Shown in pieces: positions 1,965 to 49,670 of a stretch of 64,000 bases of DNA. Under the pieces are notes generated by a model. The model was not told the origin of the DNA and made no database searches. It worked only from the letters and a program-made list of their open reading frames with translations. Position 1 is the stretch's first letter. Every line of letters begins with the position of its first letter. The translations under genes and the position numbers were made by a program. The DNA is taken from assembly GCA_000165345.1 (NCBI GenBank), contig CM000430.1, positions 96,001-160,000 on the forward strand, read 5' to 3'.

Positions 1965-4900
1965 TTGNNAGGGTNAGCGAGTTNCGTTATTCGTTTNNNN
2001 NNNNNNNNNNNNNNNNNNNNNNNNNNNNNNNNNNNNNNNNNNNNNNNNNNNNNNNNNNNNNNNNNNNNNNNNNNNNNNNNNNNNNNNNNNNNNNNNATTT
2101 CATTCCAAAAATTATATCAATGGAAATTATATATTAATCATAAATATCTTCAAATTCAACAATTTCTCAATTCTAATATATGTAGAAATATTATTATAGA
2201 ATTAAGAAATTTATCAAAAGAAACAAAATTTACTATACAAATTTCTGATTTATTATATCGTAATTTTATTATGAGAAGAATATTAAATGGAATAATATAT
2301 TGGAAATTTCAAAGTCAATATCAAAAAGAATGTAGAAATAAATATCAATTACTTGAAAATTATATTAATAAAAAATTAATTAATAAAATATTTATTAATT
2401 GGAAAAAAGAATGTCAAGATTATATTATTTATTATAAATTTATTAAAAGTATACAATTACCAATCAAAAAAAGAGTTTTTATTATTTTTAAAGGTAATTA
2501 TATATTCAATAAATATAATTATAATTGTATTCGAATATTTTTTATATCATGGAATTCTTTAACAAATAAAAAAAGAATATTAAAAGAAAAATGTCAAAAT
2601 TTCTATCAATTTTATATTTTAAAAAGATTAATAGAAAGAGTATTTAAACAATGGAGAATAAAATATTATCAGAAATTGAATATATATCAATTTTATGATA
2701 ATATTATTATTAAAAAACCTATGAAAACAATTTTTTATTATTGGAATAATAAAACAATTCAAAGATTAAAAAATGAAAAAGAATTAACAACCAAAATAAT
2801 TAATAGAGAAAAAAAGGATTATTTAAGAATGATGATAATTATTTATAAAATGAATAAAATTTATTATCAAATCAATTTTGGAATTATTAAAAGAATATTT
2901 AATATATGGAAGAAATTATATATGATTGAAAAATTTCATAGAATGAAATTATTAAAACAATATATAATATATTGGAGACATTATTCAATAAAAAGAATAA
3001 TATATAGAGATAAGATTAATATATTTATACAAGAAAGATCAAAAAGATTAATAGAAGAATATTATATAAGAATGATTATATTATATAGAAAAAGAATACA
3101 AATAAAAGAAAAATATGAATATATAAGAAATAGAATAAGAAATAGAAATTTATTAAAAATTATTCAAATATGGAAACAAAGATTTAATAATAGAATAAAG
3201 AAAAAGAATGATTATCAATATTTATTAATAATACATAATAATTATATATTAAAGATGTCAATTCGAATTTGGAAGGAGAGAATGTTAAAAGAGGAAAGAT
3301 ATAGATTAATAATCAATCAAGAAGAAATGAAAAGAATATATAATTTAAAGAGTAGAATATTAAATTATTGGAGAAAAATTTGGAAACCACATCATTATAT
3401 AAAAGTATCAAATGAATTAATAAAGATATTGAATAGAATAATAATACATAATTCATTTCATAAATTATTAAGAATAACATTTTATTCATATAAATATAAT
3501 AAAGATGAGGATAAGAATTGGATTAATATGATAAGAATGAATAATAATATAATAATAAATAAAAGAATTGGATATAGTTATTATATGGAATGTAGATGTA
3601 CTAGTAATGAATTAATAAGAGGATGTTTATTATTAAAAGATAATAATTTATGGATAATGAATATATTATCAAAAATACAAGAAATAAGAAATAATACAAT
3701 ATATGATATGTTATTAAGAATGAGAGAATATATAAGAATAAGAAAGAATTATGAGAAAGGTATAAATGATTTGGAGAAGAATTTAAGAAGAATAATATTA
3801 TCAAGAGTTTGGATAGAGATGATTAATAATATAGAAAGAATATGGATGATAGGAAGATTAATAATAATAATAAGAAATAGAAGAGAGGAGAGAATAAAGA
3901 GACAAGTATTAGTAAGATGGGTGAATAAATATAATGAGAATTATAGGAATAAATGTATAATAGAATATATGAGAAGAATATATGGTAATACAATAAAGAT
4001 TAAATGTTATTTAATTTGGTCAATAAAATTTGAGATAATAAAAAAGAAGAAGAGATTAAAAGAAAGATATGAGAAATATTTAAGAGTTTATATAATAGAA
4101 TATACAATAAGAAGAATGAATGAATATTATTTATATAATAAATGGTTAATATGGTGTAAGAAAGCTTATGATAGAATAGAATGGGTACATGATTTTAGAT
4201 TAAAATCGATATTATTTATAAATTGGAGAAGATATTCAAAAAAGCAGAAAATATTAAGGGATGAATTATATATATTATATAATAAAGTAAAGATAAGAAA
4301 GAAAGGATATATATTAATAGAATGGGTGAATAGGATAAGAATATTATTAAGAATGAGAAATGATGCTGAGAATTATTATTTGAATAATATAATATATAGA
4401 AGAAGATTTAAAGATTGTTTTAATATATGGAGAGGATTATCATTAAGATTAAGAAATCAAAAGAAGAAGATAATGGATTATTTGGAGAATAAGAATAAGA
4501 ATTTGAAGATTACATGTTTTAAACTTTGGAGATTTTTTATTTATTATAGAAAGACAAGGAATTCAAGATTTGAGAAGATAACAAATATAATAAGATTGAA
4601 TCATTTAAATATGATGGTTTATAGAATATTTTATTCATGGAAATTAAAGATGATAGAATTAAGATCTTTAAAGAATTCAATATTTTCATTTTGGAATTCT
4701 GGTATGGGTTTGGAGATGGAGGAGAGTGGATTGGGAGTGGAGGATGGTGAGAGGGGAGGAAGAAGAGGGAGAGGAGTTGGAGGAGAAGGAAGGGTTGGAG
4801 GAAGAGGAAGGGGAGGGATGGGAGGAGAAATGGAAAGGGGAGGGATGGGAGGAGAAATGGAAAGGGGAGAAATGGTAAGAGGAGAAATGGTAAGAGGAGA

Positions 4901-6350
4901 AATGATAAGAGGAGAAATAGAAAGAAGAAGCGAAATAAAAGAAAGAAGAGAGATGAACGAGCTCATTTCTCCATCAACTTTTAATTCTCCTTCTCAATAC
5001 TCTTTGGAGTTTTCAGTGGATTCACCTTCATTTAAGTTAAAAGAGGAGGAGGATGGTGTAGGGGAGGAAGATTTAGATAATGGAGAGAAAAGAAGAAAAG
5101 GAAAGGGGGAGAAAAAAGATGTTGAGAGAAAGGATTATGGATTCATGAGTATATTTTCATCAAGTGGAAATTCTTCATTAGAGTTAGTATCTCAAAGGTT
5201 GGAATCAACACGTCAAGATGATTTGAGAGGTGTAGTTAAAGAAAGAGAAATTCAAGGTCAAGCAAGGAATAATTATGGGAATTCATCTCCATCATCTACT
5301 CGTGAATATGTTAATAGGTTACTTTCCTCTTCTTCTTCTTCTTCTTCTTTGTCTGCTTTATCCGATATTTCAGAAAAAGTTTCAATAAAAGACTCTCCAT
5401 ATACTAATTCCAAGACAAAAAGATCTCATAATTCTTATTCAAAAGCTAGAAGATCATTTTCTCCTTTCCTTCAATATTCTGTGTCTTCTTCTTCTTCCTC
5501 TTTACAGTCACTATCATATTCAGATGGTGACTTGGAGATTGATGAACTACATTCTGCAACAAAGTTAAAGATAAATAGAACTCGTAAGGATCAAAATTCG
5601 TTAGACTGGAATTCACCTTCATTATCTCCACAACAACCACCATCTTCATTATCTCTTCCTCCTCCACCATCTTCATTATCTCCTCCTCCACAAGTGACTT
5701 CATCATCTCTACAACCTTCATTATCTTCTTCACCGCCTCCAATATCTCGACAATCTCTATCTTTACCACAACAGCAATCTAATCCATCTTCACCTTCACT
5801 TCCACATCTATCTTTACCTCCTCCTCCTCCTCCACAATATTCGAGTTATAAATCTTCAAATTCAAGTAATAATGATTCAATGATAATAAATCGATCAAAT
5901 TTATCTTCAAAGTTACCTCTTCCATTTCCAATTCCTATTCAACAACAGCCACAATTACAAATGGTAAATCAGGATGTGAAACAATTGTATGATTCAAATT
6001 TCACTTCTTCTTCTTCTTCTTCTTCCTCTTATTTTTCCTCTGCTTTTTCACCCTCTTCTTACTCAAAGAAAATTACTGAAGATCCAAATTTATTATTAGT
6101 AAAACTTGATACTGATACAAATCAAACAATTAAAGATCTTCCTCAAGATCCTTATCATATCTCAAGTTCTAGTCCAATCTTTAAAACAATCAAGACTGAT
6201 TTAAACAATATTCCTAATCAAAACTTTAAAGATGACCAACAAATTGAGTCCAATATAAACATAAAACCCACTCATTCTCAAAACAATAATATATTCACTT
6301 CTTCTATTTCTTCCTCTTCATCCTCATCTTTCCCTTCTCAGTCTTCATAA
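1965..6350 (+). CDS. Giant Sfi1-like centrin-binding-repeat protein, 5' end lost in the assembly gap; C-terminal half is Gly/Glu/Arg and Ser/Pro low-complexity
   Basis: The 4.4 kb ORF runs through the N run; the track start is a TTG, so the real start is unknown. The N-terminal ~900 aa carry over 20 copies of a roughly 30-35-aa repeat, each ending in [FIL]xxW[KR] (FINWKKE, FISWNSL, FKQWRIK, FYYWNNK, FNIWKKL, IIYWRHY, IQIWKQR, IRIWKER, LNYWRKI …). This matches the Sfi1 repeat consensus as I remember it. The family call is from memory, not a search. Confidence 0.5.
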   Translation: MXGXASXVIRXXXXXXXXXXXXXXXXXXXXXXXXXXXXXXXXXXISFQKLYQWKLYINHKYLQIQQFLNSNICRNIIIELRNLSKETKFTIQISDLLYRNFIMRRILNGIIYWKFQSQYQKECRNKYQLLENYINKKLINKIFINWKKECQDYIIYYKFIKSIQLPIKKRVFIIFKGNYIFNKYNYNCIRIFFISWNSLTNKKRILKEKCQNFYQFYILKRLIERVFKQWRIKYYQKLNIYQFYDNIIIKKPMKTIFYYWNNKTIQRLKNEKELTTKIINREKKDYLRMMIIIYKMNKIYYQINFGIIKRIFNIWKKLYMIEKFHRMKLLKQYIIYWRHYSIKRIIYRDKINIFIQERSKRLIEEYYIRMIILYRKRIQIKEKYEYIRNRIRNRNLLKIIQIWKQRFNNRIKKKNDYQYLLIIHNNYILKMSIRIWKERMLKEERYRLIINQEEMKRIYNLKSRILNYWRKIWKPHHYIKVSNELIKILNRIIIHNSFHKLLRITFYSYKYNKDEDKNWINMIRMNNNIIINKRIGYSYYMECRCTSNELIRGCLLLKDNNLWIMNILSKIQEIRNNTIYDMLLRMREYIRIRKNYEKGINDLEKNLRRIILSRVWIEMINNIERIWMIGRLIIIIRNRREERIKRQVLVRWVNKYNENYRNKCIIEYMRRIYGNTIKIKCYLIWSIKFEIIKKKKRLKERYEKYLRVYIIEYTIRRMNEYYLYNKWLIWCKKAYDRIEWVHDFRLKSILFINWRRYSKKQKILRDELYILYNKVKIRKKGYILIEWVNRIRILLRMRNDAENYYLNNIIYRRRFKDCFNIWRGLSLRLRNQKKKIMDYLENKNKNLKITCFKLWRFFIYYRKTRNSRFEKITNIIRLNHLNMMVYRIFYSWKLKMIELRSLKNSIFSFWNSGMGLEMEESGLGVEDGERGGRRGRGVGGEGRVGGRGRGGMGGEMERGGMGGEMERGEMVRGEMVRGEMIRGEIERRSEIKERREMNELISPSTFNSPSQYSLEFSVDSPSFKLKEEEDGVGEEDLDNGEKRRKGKGEKKDVERKDYGFMSIFSSSGNSSLELVSQRLESTRQDDLRGVVKEREIQGQARNNYGNSSPSSTREYVNRLLSSSSSSSSLSALSDISEKVSIKDSPYTNSKTKRSHNSYSKARRSFSPFLQYSVSSSSSSLQSLSYSDGDLEIDELHSATKLKINRTRKDQNSLDWNSPSLSPQQPPSSLSLPPPPSSLSPPPQVTSSSLQPSLSSSPPPISRQSLSLPQQQSNPSSPSLPHLSLPPPPPPQYSSYKSSNSSNNDSMIINRSNLSSKLPLPFPIPIQQQPQLQMVNQDVKQLYDSNFTSSSSSSSSYFSSAFSPSSYSKKITEDPNLLLVKLDTDTNQTIKDLPQDPYHISSSSPIFKTIKTDLNNIPNQNFKDDQQIESNINIKPTHSQNNNIFTSSISSSSSSSFPSQSS
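1997..2096. other. Assembly gap (run of N, with further ambiguous bases at 1969-1984)
   Basis: An explicit N run is present in the sequence. It removes the 5' end and promoter of the downstream gene. Confidence 0.95.
4700..4930 (+). repeat. In-frame purine-only (GA-rich) tandem repeats (two ~33-nt units, then four 15-nt GGAGAAATGGTAAGA units) encoding GGEMERG / GEMVRGEM
   Basis: Direct repeats are visible in the sequence. There is strong strand asymmetry (purines on the coding strand). Confidence 0.8.
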
Positions 6351-20382: not shown

Positions 20383-20433
20383 TACCGCCAAATAAATTCC
20401 CAATTATATAGATATTTGTTTTGCCGCCAAATG
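20383..20433. promoter_or_regulatory. Two E2F-like boxes (TACCGCCAAAT, TTGCCGCCAAATGG) in the head-to-head spacer upstream of the MPDU1-like gene
   Basis: Sequence motifs. They lie ~350 nt upstream of the ATG at 20778. Confidence 0.4.
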
Positions 20434-43269: not shown

Positions 43270-44103
43270 TTAATTCTTGAAGATCTTTGTCATCCTCCTG
43301 AGAGCTGAAGAAACCAAATGCACTGGAGTCCTAATTAAATCGCCAATCGCTCCTCCGTTAGTGGTTCCATGATCTGATTCAGCATCATTTGCAGCCATTA
43401 ATGATGAAATTGGTGTTGATGAGTAAGAAAGTCTTGAAGTTCTTGTAGGAGTTCTTAAGCTTGAATCACCTCCATTCTTTGCATCAACTTTCATTGAATT
43501 CTTTCTTGCTGTTAAGGAAGTTGCTGAAGCTGGTAGTTTTTTTAGTTTAGAAGATGATGATGAAGTCTTTGACTTGGGCTTTGTTGCCTTTTCAGTGGAA
43601 GCTGACTTCTTTTCCTTACTATTAGCCTTCGATATCTTGTTTTCCTTTAAATTACTCTCTGGTTTCTTTTTTTTATTTCCGGTTGATATTTCCTTAACAA
43701 TATTGTCCAAAATCTTGTTTTTTGCAACTTCACTCTTTGTGACCTTCTTAGTACTTGATGAGACACCCTTCTTAACTATTTCACTGATAGCTTTGGCTTC
43801 TGATCCCTTTGATTTAATTATCTTGTGATTCAGAATTTCTCCTCCCTTTTTGCTTGTCTTGCTAATTGTCTTCTTAACTACAGGTTTTACGGTTCCCTGC
43901 TCTTTTTTAATAGGATGCGAATTTGAAGCCTTAGTCGTTGCTATTGATGATTTTGACAACGAGCTTTTGCGAGACTTTGAAGATGATAAAGAAGTTGATT
44001 TTGGGGTTTCCTTCTTTACTGAAATCTTACTAGACTTTGAATTACAGCTCTTGGAAGCAGTTTTGCAGATAGACTTCTTTGAATCTGTTGAGCAACCACT
44101 CAT
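43270..44103 (-). CDS. Highly basic Lys/Ser-rich low-complexity protein (possible nuclear/nucleolar protein)
   Basis: ATG at 44103. 277 aa, about 40% K+S, with KK(V/I)TKSE-type repeats. No motif I recognise. The promoter box TTTGCATGCAAA…TTTGGCGCCCGACTGTGGGCGCGC (44695..44737) lies ~600 nt upstream. Confidence 0.45.
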   Translation of the reverse strand: MSGCSTDSKKSICKTASKSCNSKSSKISVKKETPKSTSLSSSKSRKSSLSKSSIATTKASNSHPIKKEQGTVKPVVKKTISKTSKKGGEILNHKIIKSKGSEAKAISEIVKKGVSSSTKKVTKSEVAKNKILDNIVKEISTGNKKKKPESNLKENKISKANSKEKKSASTEKATKPKSKTSSSSSKLKKLPASATSLTARKNSMKVDAKNGGDSSLRTPTRTSRLSYSSTPISSLMAANDAESDHGTTNGGAIGDLIRTPVHLVSSALRRMTKIFKN

Positions 44104-45402: not shown

Positions 45403-45706
45403 TTATCCCATGATCTTTTCCTTAAACTTTCCGAGAATATGAAGTACAATAACTATTGACATGTATGCCAAAGTCATTACGAGAACAGTCATTGGCCCAA
45501 GCTTGAGTCCTGGTGTATCATCAACGTAGTAACTCATCAAATTTTGAGCGAGGTTCTCTCTGCTGCTAGTTACAGAAGATGCCAATGCACGGCGTTGTCT
45601 AATTTATAGAAAGAAAAAAGTGAATAAAGATTCTCACATCCTATTATTTCTTAGCTTACCTCATTGTACTTGATCTTGCAATAGAACCTTTTCCTGCTGC
45701 TCCCAT
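45403..45706 (-). CDS. SEC61B: Sec61 translocon beta subunit, two exons: complement(join(45403..45598,45660..45706)), 61-nt intron
   Basis: The track ORF (45403..45585) starts at TTG; its frame stays open upstream through …IRQRRA. The C-terminus MSYYVDDTPGLKLGPMTVLVMTLAYMSIVIVLHILGKFK matches Sec61β (…[39 protein letters not shown]). Upstream, CCAATATGGGAGCAGCAGGAAAAGGTTCTATTGCAAGATCAAGTACAATGAG|GTAAGC … TTCTTTCTATAAATTAG|A joins in phase 2. The product is an 80-aa protein, MGAAGKGSIARSSTMRQRRALASS…, the right size for Sec61β/Sbh1. Confidence 0.7.
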
Positions 45707-46235
45707 ATTGGATGAGCTTCCTGTTGATTGCGTTGAATTCTTTGTCTAAAAGAATAAGATGATTAATTTAAATATGAACTCTAAATAAGTTTATCATTTC
45801 GAGTTTAATAAACGAAGAGAACCTCCTTTGAAAATAGAATCTCTCCTATATGGAAATAATCCCAGCTAATATACTCGAAAAGATATAAAGATAAATATTC
45901 AAATGACTTACCATCTCTAATTCAATAAAATCTAAACGTTCTTAAAATTCCAAAGAATAAAATATTAGTTTTACTTTCTTTTAATTTTTCTTTTTTTTCC
46001 CCAATTTATTGAGCTTTATCCAGATATGGTAAAATATCTTTTCCCCTCTTATAACTCTATGTTTTTTTATTTTTGTCAATACACTCAAAAATTGAGTGAG
46101 TCTTGCGGTACCTCTTCAATTAATTAATTATTTCTTTATATGAATATACTATATAGTTATTAAGTTACCTTATTTAAATTTTTTTTATTCAAATACCCCC
46201 ACTATTCACTTTCCCGCTACACTTACCCTGAATTT

Positions 46236-46333
46236 ACCGCCAAATTGCAAAACATTAAAATTTCGAAATATCCCATTAATCGAAATAGGAAATAATGACG
46301 ATAAAAATGCAGGCCCCACAGTTTTGGCGGCAC
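46236..46333. promoter_or_regulatory. TTCCCGC, TACCGCCAAATTG and GTTTTGGCGGCAC E2F-like boxes in the head-to-head spacer between the Sec61-beta and Kir-like genes
   Basis: Sequence motifs. They lie 200-300 nt upstream of the Kir ATG (46544) and ~550 nt upstream of the Sec61β ATG. Confidence 0.4.
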
Positions 46334-46543
46334 ATTTTGAGATTCTATTAATGTTAAATTTATAAAGTTAACTAAAAATGGAATCGAAAAAAGAATTGGG
46401 TAAGAAAACAAAATTTTAGAAAAAAAGGAAGAGATGGTCATTCAGCCGTATTCGAATGAGTTTGAAGTACTCCACTTCCCAATTTTTTTAAAGAAAAAAT
46501 CAACTAAATTTGATTATTTTGGTATATATTCCGACAAATAATA

Positions 46544-47749
46544 ATGAACATTGAACTTTCCAAGCCTTTATTAAAAACATACACTCAGGATCAAATGTAT
46601 TACAATAGTAAAAAAAATCAAATAAGTGATACTAGTAGTAATCAAAGCTATGAGAGCCCTGATTTAAGTGACCGAATTGAAACAAAAGCATCCGACTTCA
46701 TTTCATATAGCAACAGAAATCCTCCGAATATACTAATGGAAAATGGAACCTTAAATATAATGCATCACTGGGATAGACTCAGCCAATTCTTTGAATTTTG
46801 TTTACACGACAGATTCCATGTTATGCTTTCAATGAGTTGGGGAAGTCTTATTTTATTTATATTTCTCGTATATATTCTACTTGCAATTATCCTAGCAATA
46901 ATACATTTTATTATTACATTTGGTGATGCTGCTAATTGTATTGGGAGCGATAAATTTGGGAATATAGAATATTTTTTCTTTGCTGTTGAAACTATGTTTA
47001 GTATTGGCTACGGTTCCCCAAGATCACCATGTTGCTTAATTACCAACTACTTTACTTCAATTACGGTTATTAGTGGTTGCATCTTGAATTCAGTTACTGT
47101 TGGAATATTCTTTACAAAATTTTCAGAATCAACTTCTAGAAAATGGTCAATTTGTTTCTCCAAAGAACTTTGTGGAATTGGATTTAAAAGTATAACTCCT
47201 GAAGAAGTACTTGAAGTACCTAATCAATCAAACTTACCACCTATCACTTCATATGCCTTTACTAAGGCAGCTGAAACCACCTGTGAGAATTGTCCATTCA
47301 TTATTTCATTCAGACTTTTTAATATCTCTCAAGAACCATTTTTTTCGCCTGATCTTAAAATTTTCATTCTTATCCACGGTGACAACGGCCCATATATCAC
47401 AGAAATTTCATCATACAAACTTGATGTTCCTCTAGAATTTATGGAAACTCCTATCACTGTTTCGATATACTCAAACCAGCCTGACTCCCCTCTTAAAAAC
47501 TTTACTATTAATCATCTTAGAAATCAAGGGCATCTCATTGAACTCATGATATTGCTACGCTTCTCTGATAACAGAACATCAAAGAATTTGGAGGTCAGGA
47601 AGACCTGGAGACTTAATAATGTCTTCTGGGGATATAAATTTTCTTCTATTATTAAGAAACAAGTTTATCATGGCGGAACTATGTACAAAGTCGGAATTTC
47701 AGATCTCGATAACATTGAGCCTGTTATCTCCGGTACTCCATTTCTCTAA
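46544..47749 (+). CDS. Inward-rectifier potassium channel (Kir/IRK family)-like protein
   Basis: ATG 46544. 401 aa. Slide-helix-like HHWDRLSQFFEFCLHDRFHVMLSMSW. M1 is GSLILFIFLVYILLAIILAIIHFII. The pore helix and filter IEYFFFAVETMFSIGYGSP match KirBac1.1 FTDAFFFSVQTMATIGYGK and Kir2 FLFSIETQTTIGYG. M2 is ITNYFTSITVISGCILNSVTVGIFFTKF, followed by a basic SRKW stretch. A ~210-aa beta-rich cytoplasmic domain follows (ISFRLFNISQEPFFSPDLKIFILIHGDNGPY…). Confidence 0.6.
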   Translation: MNIELSKPLLKTYTQDQMYYNSKKNQISDTSSNQSYESPDLSDRIETKASDFISYSNRNPPNILMENGTLNIMHHWDRLSQFFEFCLHDRFHVMLSMSWGSLILFIFLVYILLAIILAIIHFIITFGDAANCIGSDKFGNIEYFFFAVETMFSIGYGSPRSPCCLITNYFTSITVISGCILNSVTVGIFFTKFSESTSRKWSICFSKELCGIGFKSITPEEVLEVPNQSNLPPITSYAFTKAAETTCENCPFIISFRLFNISQEPFFSPDLKIFILIHGDNGPYITEISSYKLDVPLEFMETPITVSIYSNQPDSPLKNFTINHLRNQGHLIELMILLRFSDNRTSKNLEVRKTWRLNNVFWGYKFSSIIKKQVYHGGTMYKVGISDLDNIEPVISGTPFL

Positions 47750-48650: not shown

Positions 48651-49670
48651 TTACTTTTTGTTAATAATCAATGAACCTATACAAGTTGCTAAGATCATTA
48701 ATCCTACAGTTCCAACGATCTTAAGGAAAGCTTCGCGTGATAAATGTTTAGCTCCCTTCTTGAATGTTAATTCAATCATCTCTAAAGCAGGTAATTCATC
48801 GCCAGCAATACCTTGGAATGATAAAGATGGAGATGGTAATTGAGTATTAATTGGTGATAATTCAACTTGATTACCATTTTGAATGATATATGGAACCATC
48901 TTGCTACCATCAACCTTAAATGAGCAATAAGAATCACAGTTCAAGAAAGTAGTACCTTCAATAGTTGAGTTGTATGTACCCCTATTTTGACCACTAATTA
49001 CAAGCTCAACATGAGTATCCAAAATAAGTTGTTGAACCTTCTTTAACGAAGAATCGATTGAATATGAAGAAGCCAAGTATTTGTTTCCAACTACAACAGT
49101 GAAATCATGATGTTTATGACCATAGTGTAAAGTTGCATTCAAATTTTGGAAGGCTTGTTCAGAAACTTTGTGGTCTGGGAAAGAGCTGGAAAGAATAAAA
49201 GTATCAATGAATACAAATAAAACAGTACCATCTCTTCTAGATAACACATTTGAAGTATCAGTATAGTGTGAAACATAATGATAAAAGTAATTTGGGAAAC
49301 TAAATCTTGGGAAAATATCATTATTGCTATCATAAGTTACATTATTTCTCTTCAATAGCAAGTTAGCATTCCCATTATCCCAATCAGCTTGACCCATTGC
49401 TGCGAACAATGGAATCTGGAGAGATTTTTCTGAGTAAATATTCTCAAAACAATGTTTGAAATCAATTCCACCAGGAAAGTTATCTCCAGGACTAACCAAT
49501 AATGAGAATGGAGTCTTCTCTGCTTGGGCTTTTAAAACAGAAGCTACCTTTTTTTGGTTTCCAGAACATCCATAATTTGATAATGATGCAAAATATAATT
49601 CTCCATTAACTCTATTTGAACTAACAAATATACACAAAACGATTCCAAAAACTAGAAGTAATGCTCTCAT
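48651..49670 (-). CDS. Calcineurin-like metallophosphoesterase, purple/tartrate-resistant acid phosphatase (ACP5)-like, with signal peptide and C-terminal hydrophobic anchor; metal-binding motifs partly degenerate
   Basis: ATG 49670. Signal peptide ALLLVFGIVLCIFVSS. LLVSPGDNFPGGID resembles ACP5 VGDNFY. AAMGQADWDN sits where GNHD should be. HYGHKHHDF resembles AGHDHN. The C-terminus IVGTVGLMILATCIGSLIINKK is a TM or GPI-type anchor. Confidence 0.5.
   Translation of the reverse strand: MRALLLVFGIVLCIFVSSNRVNGELYFASLSNYGCSGNQKKVASVLKAQAEKTPFSLLVSPGDNFPGGIDFKHCFENIYSEKSLQIPLFAAMGQADWDNGNANLLLKRNNVTYDSNNDIFPRFSFPNYFYHYVSHYTDTSNVLSRRDGTVLFVFIDTFILSSSFPDHKVSEQAFQNLNATLHYGHKHHDFTVVVGNKYLASSYSIDSSLKKVQQLILDTHVELVISGQNRGTYNSTIEGTTFLNCDSYCSFKVDGSKMVPYIIQNGNQVELSPINTQLPSPSLSFQGIAGDELPALEMIELTFKKGAKHLSREAFLKIVGTVGLMILATCIGSLIINKK

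Follow-up and report, generated by a model that had tools for sequence, protein, structure and literature searches.

Is the 401-amino-acid open reading frame at positions 46544..47749 (+) of this 64-kb stretch of DNA (the window) a genuine inward-rectifier (Kir) potassium channel, and if so, how did a Cryptosporidium genome come to hold it and what kind of conductance would it provide? A preliminary description of the window had placed a Kir-type channel at this site, and the ORF list of the window contains an ATG-to-stop frame of 401 codons exactly there. We conclude that this frame is a true gene encoding a Kir-family (IRK, TC 1.A.2) channel subunit; it is a complete, intronless coding sequence of 401 amino acids plus stop, with matches to the Pfam domains IRK and IRK_C. 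The best explanation overall, which we hold with high confidence, is the single Kir subunit of a Cryptosporidium species related to C. ubiquitum, one that is orthologous to the Kirs already described, T. gondii TGME49_284530 included, and is predicted to form a weakly rectifying K+ channel.

The preliminary description regarded a two-transmembrane Kir as unexpected in an apicomplexan, but such proteins have been known for some time. Two-transmembrane Kir homologues were reported from C. parvum, C. hominis, C. muris and T. gondii, with the rare GYGS end of the filter, a glutamate equivalent to Kir2.1 E138 and no D172 (Prole and Marrion, 2012, PLoS One; PMC3283738). The channel examined here has the same two transmembrane helices, GYGS, pore-helix Glu and lack of D172 as those proteins (C. 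parvum XP_626299, C. hominis XP_666498, C. muris XP_002140833, T. gondii XP_002369151/TGME49_284530), and these shared features, together with the sequences from other Cryptosporidium species, suggest that it is orthologous to the Kirs of C. parvum, C. hominis and C. muris. Furthermore, database records already name the orthologues of C. felis, T. gondii and Gregarina "inward rectifier potassium channel protein," and a 2022 review states that protozoan genomes encode inward rectifiers (PMC9799330). A literature search for TGME49_284530, cubi_00441 and the XP_ accessions returned the 2012 survey only, and no functional study of any apicomplexan Kir was found in the literature. The gene adds one more orthologue to the catalogued but functionally uncharacterised Kirs of apicomplexans, and its existence was already known.

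Gene neighbourhood and conservation within Cryptosporidium

The region around the channel gene has a GC content of about 30% and is AT-rich like the remainder of the window. The neighbouring gene on the opposite strand encodes Sec61beta (45403..45914, -; 94 aa; Pfam Sec61_beta, 55 bits) in three exons, the first of which consists of the ATG (45914..45912), followed by 45745..45660 and 45598..45403. The two introns, of 166 nt and 61 nt, have the form GTAAG...TAG, and the first begins directly after the ATG. In the C. ubiquitum annotation, Sec61beta is also 94 aa long and starts with ATGGTAAGT. A single-intron model of 80 aa was rejected and replaced by the three-exon model. The head-to-head orientation and the spliceosomal splicing of this neighbour had been recognized in the preliminary description, which counted one intron where we find two.

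The two genes share a divergent intergenic region of 629 bp (45915..46543), within which blocks of sequence are conserved in a pairwise alignment with C. ubiquitum. Two copies of the E2F-like motif TTTGGCGG are located in this region (46237-46244, -; 46323-46330, +), and the whole window has 8 occurrences where 0.28 would be expected. The motif GGCGGGAAA is absent from the intergenic region 45915..46543, and among the motifs examined only TTTGGCGG is enriched. A head-to-head promoter with Cryptosporidium-type motifs had been proposed for this locus; the TTTGGCGG copies and the conserved blocks may act as promoter elements.

Orthologues of 378-421 aa with the same start methionine are present in at least nine Cryptosporidium lineages. 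Those from C. ubiquitum, C. canis, C. felis, C. bovis, C. ryanae and C. serpentis are 56-82% identical to the channel, and others were recovered from three read assemblies. The closest named relative is C. ubiquitum cubi_00441, which is 82% identical, and the exact protein was found only in the raw-read (Logan) assemblies ERR14760746 and SRR18691161. Among the Cryptosporidium orthologues the pore sequence does not vary, and neither do large stretches of the cytoplasmic domain. In the comparison with C. ubiquitum, dN/dS was 0.096 with dS near 1, and the constraint was tightest in the transmembrane and C-terminal domains and loosest in the first 60 residues. Likewise, the order of genes is kept in C. 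ubiquitum, where Cpn60_TCP1, a 297-aa gene, Sec61beta, IRK, a 338-aa gene and Sad1_UNC follow one another. The preliminary description had argued against bacterial contamination, and the synteny with C. ubiquitum, the AT-rich composition in common with the surroundings, the shared divergent intergenic region with its conserved blocks and enriched TTTGGCGG motif, and the dN/dS of 0.10 all support a resident Cryptosporidium gene.

Long ORFs, mostly without introns, are packed compactly along the entire window. ORFs of 72 aa and 74 aa that are intergenic or overlap the channel gene were taken to be chance ORFs.

Domain profiles, predicted fold and parts of the protein

The assignment to the Kir family, which the preliminary description had made from the order of elements along the chain, is confirmed by sequence profiles and by a predicted fold that covers the whole chain. 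Pfam IRK (PF01007) matches aa 66-194 with 28.7 bits, spanning profile positions 3-139 of 141, and Pfam IRK_C (PF17655) matches aa 299-394 with 34.2 bits; both exceed the curated gathering cut-offs of 22.7 and 22.5 bits, respectively. An NCBIfam scan of the channel protein gave no match, as expected for a eukaryotic protein. In a phmmer search of all PDB sequences the top matches were Kir channels only (Kir2.2, 2e-11; KirBac3.1, 1e-8; KirBac1.1, 3e-6), so that the match to KirBac1.1 is weaker than that to animal Kir2.2. A profile built from the Cryptosporidium orthologues detected Kir6.2 in the PDB with an E-value of 4e-16, with significant alignments for the membrane part and the cytoplasmic part each, and aligned aa ~245-390 to the cytoplasmic domains of Kir6.1, Kir6.2 and Kir2.1.

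An AlphaFold2 model was made from an 89-sequence alignment and has a mean pLDDT of 84.2 and a pTM of 0.74, with low confidence limited to aa 1-60 and to an insertion at about aa 216-250. When the model was compared with the PDB by Foldseek, the top 50 matches were all Kir chains, with E-values down to 2.5e-18 and 336-398 aligned columns, which means that the match spans both domains. The target-normalised TM-scores were 0.59-0.81, or 0.67-0.81 when three Kir6.1 chains are excluded, and the identity to the solved Kirs in these alignments was 16-19%. The solved chains of Kir2.2, Kir6.2, Kir4.1, Kir7.1 and KirBac3.1 are matched over approximately 350 columns, including the membrane part and the beta-rich cytoplasmic domain, which superposes on the Kir beta-sandwich in the comparison with Kir2 and KirBac structures that the preliminary description had proposed. 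By its sequence profiles and predicted fold, the protein is a genuine Kir-family channel, and neither of the two outcomes that the preliminary description had named as contrary to this, a missing IRK-domain match or a cytoplasmic domain of another fold, was observed.

The modelled helices at 80-96, 99-124, 139-152 and 165-194, together with the x-x-G-Y-G filter, correspond to a two-transmembrane topology. The slide helix, M1, pore helix, M2 and beta-rich domain of the preliminary description are all reproduced by AlphaFold2; the PIP2-site-like basic stretch that it placed after M2 is not borne out, as discussed below. The first 60 residues (46544..46723, +) are probably a disordered cytoplasmic tail, since their pLDDT is 47-69 and they are variable in the Cryptosporidium alignment; their pN against C. 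ubiquitum is 0.25, compared with about 0.05 elsewhere. They are followed by an N-terminal strand motif (LMENGTLNI) and the slide helix (LHDRFHVMLSMSW) at aa 64-96 (46733..46831, +), with helices modelled at 80-88 and 90-96. In alignments with Kir6.2 and Kir2.2 this segment falls on the region of the N-terminal strand and slide helix, and G68, L70, N71, H74, D89, R90, F91, H92, L95 and W99 within aa 64-99 are invariant across Cryptosporidium.

The outer transmembrane helix M1 (aa 99-124; 46838..46915, +) is modelled with pLDDT >90 and lies inside the IRK match at 66-194. The pore segment, aa 132-164 (46937..47035, +), begins with the turret residue Cys132 and contains the pore helix at 139-152 with E149, the filter S153-I-G-Y-G157 and the motif GYGSPRxPxC, which ends at Cys164. 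The whole of this segment, including S153-I-G-Y-G157, is invariant across Cryptosporidium, and the GYGSPRxPxC motif is common to Toxoplasma, Eimeria, Vitrella and the squirmids. The inner helix M2 (aa 165-194; 47036..47125, +), as modelled by AlphaFold2, carries the hinge G178, N182 at the rectification-controller position, and G187. The cytoplasmic beta-rich Kir C-terminal domain, aa 203-395 (47150..47728, +), is defined by the IRK_C match at aa 299-394 and by the whole-chain Foldseek matches; thirteen strands are modelled with pLDDT >90 in the strand-rich span 203-393. Near the start of this domain lies a Cryptosporidium-specific variable insertion at aa 216-250 (47189..47293, +; pLDDT 60-76; pN 0.116), which differs in length and sequence between species and is located outside the IRK_C match.

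In whole-chain architecture and predicted fold, from the N-terminal strand to the beta-sandwich, the channel is thus like the animal Kirs (Kir2.2, Kir6.2, Kir3.2, Kir4.1, Kir7.1), with which it also has the cysteine pair positions, R257 and N260 in common. It differs from them in its 16-19% identity, in a first filter residue that is Ser rather than Thr, and in the extra insertion at aa 216-250. The fold also matches the bacterial channels KirBac1.1 (1p7b) and KirBac3.1 (1xl4), with target TM-scores up to 0.80. The pore sequence FFFAVETMFSIGYGSPRSP corresponds to aa 144-162 of the 401-aa protein, and the pore helix and filter are identical to those of KirBac1.1, FFFSVETLATVGYG, at 10 of 14 positions. 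The preliminary description had called the filter a match to KirBac1.1 almost residue for residue and had quoted FFFSVQTMATIGYG as the KirBac1.1 string; the actual 1p7b sequence is FFFSVETLATVGYG, and FFFSVQTMATIGYG resembles the family consensus.

Origin of the gene

The preliminary description left three origins open for the channel: lineage-specific, anciently retained or horizontally acquired. When 1.84 billion representative proteins were searched exhaustively with HMMER, 652 relatives were identified. A word-indexed search with the genus profile contributed Eimeria mitis alone; the other alveolates were reached by the exhaustive search. The best matches after Cryptosporidium were Toxoplasma gondii TGME49_284530, which is the best match outside the genus, Besnoitia and Eimeria, and further top relatives were the blastogregarine Siedleckia, the gregarines Gregarina and Polyplicarium, the chromerid Vitrella and the squirmids Filipodium and Platyproteum. 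Onward, the order by score was Perkinsus, then the dinoflagellate Polykrikos, and then an arachnid KCNJ6, Anaeramoeba, Chara and Mesostigma. This order by score is the organismal order, which argues for vertical descent in the Myzozoa and against horizontal transfer. The coccidian Kirs, at 454-1060 aa, far exceed the 401-aa protein examined here in length and have large extensions at the N-terminus.

In a neighbour-joining tree based on 292 columns, the bootstrap support was 92% for Cryptosporidium, 40% for the node that unites apicomplexans, chromerids and squirmids, 82% when Perkinsus is included and 92% with the Polykrikos group. The alveolate clade is separated from many sequences of 290-330 aa, which is the length of KirBac-like proteins; these are mostly metagenomic proteins, for which a prokaryotic origin is assumed. 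Thus, the channel does not group with the KirBac-like sequences. Within the genus, C. serpentis branches first, followed by C. bovis/C. ryanae, C. felis, and then the C. canis and C. ubiquitum groups, and this branching agrees with the species relationships. Furthermore, the channel has cysteines at the positions of the extracellular pair of eukaryotic-type Kirs, as judged from the alignments: C132 aligns with Kir6.2 C110 and C164 with the post-filter Cys of Kir2.2 (the C122/C154 pair of Kir2.1). C132 is present in 26 and C164 in all of the 31 alveolate-clade sequences, and the pair is mostly absent from the 290-330-aa group.

Taken together, the score order, the tree and the cysteine pair support vertical descent since the myzozoan ancestor or earlier. 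Of the three origins proposed earlier, ancient retention fits these data, and horizontal acquisition is not supported. Acquisition from a bacterium with a KirBac-like channel, or from an animal host, could be proposed from the patchy distribution of the family in the Apicomplexa, with no Kir found in Plasmodium or Babesia by the published survey (PMC3283738), and from the fold, which matches KirBac3.1 (target TM-score 0.78) as well as it does the animal Kirs. We consider such a transfer very improbable, because the relatives nearest in score follow the organismal order from coccidia to dinoflagellate, the alveolate clade with 82-92% bootstrap lies apart from the 290-330-aa group, and the eukaryotic-type cysteines found throughout most of the clade are mostly missing from the short sequences. 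The branching within the genus tracks the species, synteny is kept, and animal Kirs are no more than about 17% identical to the channel. Composition, synteny, the tree and the cysteine pair speak against contamination and recent horizontal transfer, and both were rejected. Under vertical descent, loss of the gene in Plasmodium and Babesia would explain why the survey did not find a Kir there.

Pore, rectification and gating residues

Individual residues were mapped with HMMER alignments to Kir2.2 and Kir6.2 and with the 89-sequence alignment, at an identity to the solved Kirs of 16-19%. The channel has kept G-Y-G, the pore-helix E149, the M2 glycines G178 and G187, R257 and N260, the last two being near-universal Kir residues, and the filter, the pore-helix Glu and the glycine hinges are invariant across the genus Cryptosporidium. 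The first residue of the filter is Ser (S153), a position at which 66 of the 89 aligned sequences have T. With serine at this position, the hydroxyl group that makes up the innermost K+ site is retained. By analogy with the solved Kirs, the channel would consist of four subunits, whose pore helices and S-I-G-Y-G filters create a K+-selective pore; M1 and M2 would flank this pore, and a tetrameric beta-sandwich domain would continue it on the cytoplasmic side. The membrane location of the channel is likewise inferred, and it may be organellar.

In Kir2.1, the acidic residues D172, E224 and E299 give strong rectification by Mg2+ and polyamines. All three are absent from the channel examined here, which has N182 at the position of D172, S268 at that of E224 and R339 at that of E299; N182 aligns with N160 of Kir6.2, at the Kir2.1 D172 position. 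The weakly rectifying animal Kirs are likewise without these acidic residues. Among the PIP2 residues of Kir2.2 (R78, W79, R80, K183, R186, K188 and K189), only the tryptophan (W99) and one lysine (K192) are kept. For the basic cluster this amounts to one of six, K192 corresponding to K183, and the Kir2.2 residues R78, R80, R186, K188 and K189 are replaced by S98, G100, E195, T197 and S198. Additionally, R199 matches Kir2.2 R190, which adjoins the PIP2 residues. It is for these replacements that the PIP2-site-like basic stretch of the preliminary description does not hold. The basic PIP2 cluster is not a family-defining feature, as the KirBacs are also without it; the channel and the KirBacs have the lack of a Kir2-type PIP2 site in common.

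With N182, S268 and R339 all non-acidic and most of the PIP2 residues missing, the channel is predicted to provide a weakly rectifying K+ conductance, and its gating ligand is probably not bound at a Kir2-type PIP2 site. In the parasite, such a channel may help to set the membrane potential and the K+ balance. The number of K+ channel genes in Cryptosporidium is approximately two in published surveys (PMC2234077, PMC3283738), and with so few channels the Kir homologue likely contributes substantially to K+ homeostasis and membrane potential.

Two other functional readings can be weighed against a weakly rectifying K+ channel. One is that the Kir fold is kept while the channel is non-selective or non-conducting, or resides in an internal membrane and responds to a lineage-specific ligand. 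The serine in place of the first filter threonine, the clade-specific GYGSPRxPxC exit, the basic R339 in the presumed cytoplasmic pore, the loss of most PIP2-contact residues and the insertion at aa 216-250 could all be read in this way. However, G-Y-G, the glutamate of the pore helix and the two glycines of M2 do not vary and are subject to strong purifying selection, the serine retains the hydroxyl of the innermost K+ site, and the acidic residues are also missing from weakly rectifying animal Kirs, and we therefore consider this reading unlikely. The other, an ATP-inhibited, KATP-like channel, was suggested by Prole and Marrion (2012) on the basis of similarity to Kir6. The Cryptosporidium profile does score best against Kir6.2 (4e-16), and R78 and K207 of the channel align with the ATP-contact residues R50 and K185 of Kir6.2. 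Against this, the score for Kir6.2 is only slightly above those for Kir2.2 and Kir3.2, K207 is not kept in Toxoplasma or Eimeria, and the position of Kir6.2 G334 is occupied by D389, with Asp or Asn across the Cryptosporidium orthologues. In Kir6.2, the substitution G334D abolishes inhibition by ATP. An ATP-inhibited channel appears to be an improbable candidate as well, and a weakly rectifying K+ channel is the reading that we prefer.

The interest that remains in this channel lies in the clade-specific pore-exit motif, in a rectification predicted to be weak in a channel that lacks a Kir2-type PIP2 site, and in its likely importance to a parasite that has about two K+ channels. The pore and the cytoplasmic gating sites differ from those of the human Kirs, which could permit selective block in a pathogen for which there are few treatment options. 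More tentatively, the myzozoan Kirs, from Cryptosporidium, coccidia, gregarines, chromerids and squirmids, may represent a functionally distinct subfamily with weak rectification and PIP2-independent gating, a possibility that we find plausible but would not yet call probable. If so, one of about two K+ channels in the parasite might set its membrane potential and offer a parasite-selective drug target. The marks of the clade are a pore exit of the form E-T-M-F-[SAT]-I-G-[YF]-G-S-P-R-x-P-x-C, Asn at the rectification site, the lack of an acidic ring in the cytoplasmic pore, where Cryptosporidium has Arg, and the lack of a Kir2-type PIP2 site.

As a separate observation, R339 occupies a position that in animal Kirs belongs to the lining of the cytoplasmic pore, and an arginine there could alter cation conduction unpredictably.

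Sec61beta gene and the intergenic region shared with the Kir gene

The Sec61beta gene (45403-45914, minus strand), which lies head to head with the gene for the inward-rectifier potassium channel (Kir), encodes a 94-aa product. The first exon consists of a single codon, the ATG alone, and is directly followed by an intron of 166 nt (GTAAGT...TAG); the second intron is 61 nt long. An identical exon/intron structure is annotated for Sec61beta in C. ubiquitum.

Despite near-saturated synonymous sites (dS of about 1), several blocks of 15-40 nt in the region between the two genes are nearly identical to those in C. ubiquitum, namely 46010-46040, 46092-46112, 46194-46209 and 46293-46331. These blocks are candidates for regulatory elements or untranslated-region sequence. 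The E2F-like octamer TTTGGCGG occurs eight times in the window (at 20385, 20424, 23749, 43064, 46237, 46323, 54916 and 56682), as compared to 0.28 copies expected from shuffled sequences. Two of the eight are located between Sec61beta and the Kir gene, at 46237 and 46323; the second of these falls within a block conserved in C. ubiquitum.

Genes flanking the Sec61beta/Kir pair

The downstream neighbour is a 339-aa gene (48651-49670, minus strand) with a predicted signal-like N-terminus and a hydrophobic stretch at the C-terminus. Its score for the Metallophos (calcineurin-like phosphoesterase) domain was sub-threshold, at 19.2 bits against a threshold of 21.5, and the counterpart of 338 aa at the same position in C. 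ubiquitum has no Pfam domain on record. A Ser/Lys-rich, low-complexity ORF of 277 aa (43270-44103, minus strand) gave zero matches to Pfam, and a 297-aa gene without a Pfam match occupies its position in C. ubiquitum.

Kir homologues and a low-GC coding stretch

The Kir proteins of C. parvum, C. hominis and C. muris that were described previously (Prole and Marrion, 2012; PMC3283738) were absent among the matches of the word-indexed homology search, unlike those of more distant Cryptosporidium species. Two Kir sequences found solely in the Logan raw-read assemblies, P0004 and P0005, fall together with C. canis, of whose clade they may be representatives.

Elsewhere, the segment 2001-4000, inside a 1461-aa ORF (1965-6350, plus strand), has a very low GC content (15.5%) and strongly positive GC and AT skews. 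The segment, which is followed by purine-rich tandem repeats at 4752-4925, probably represents low-complexity coding sequence within this ORF.
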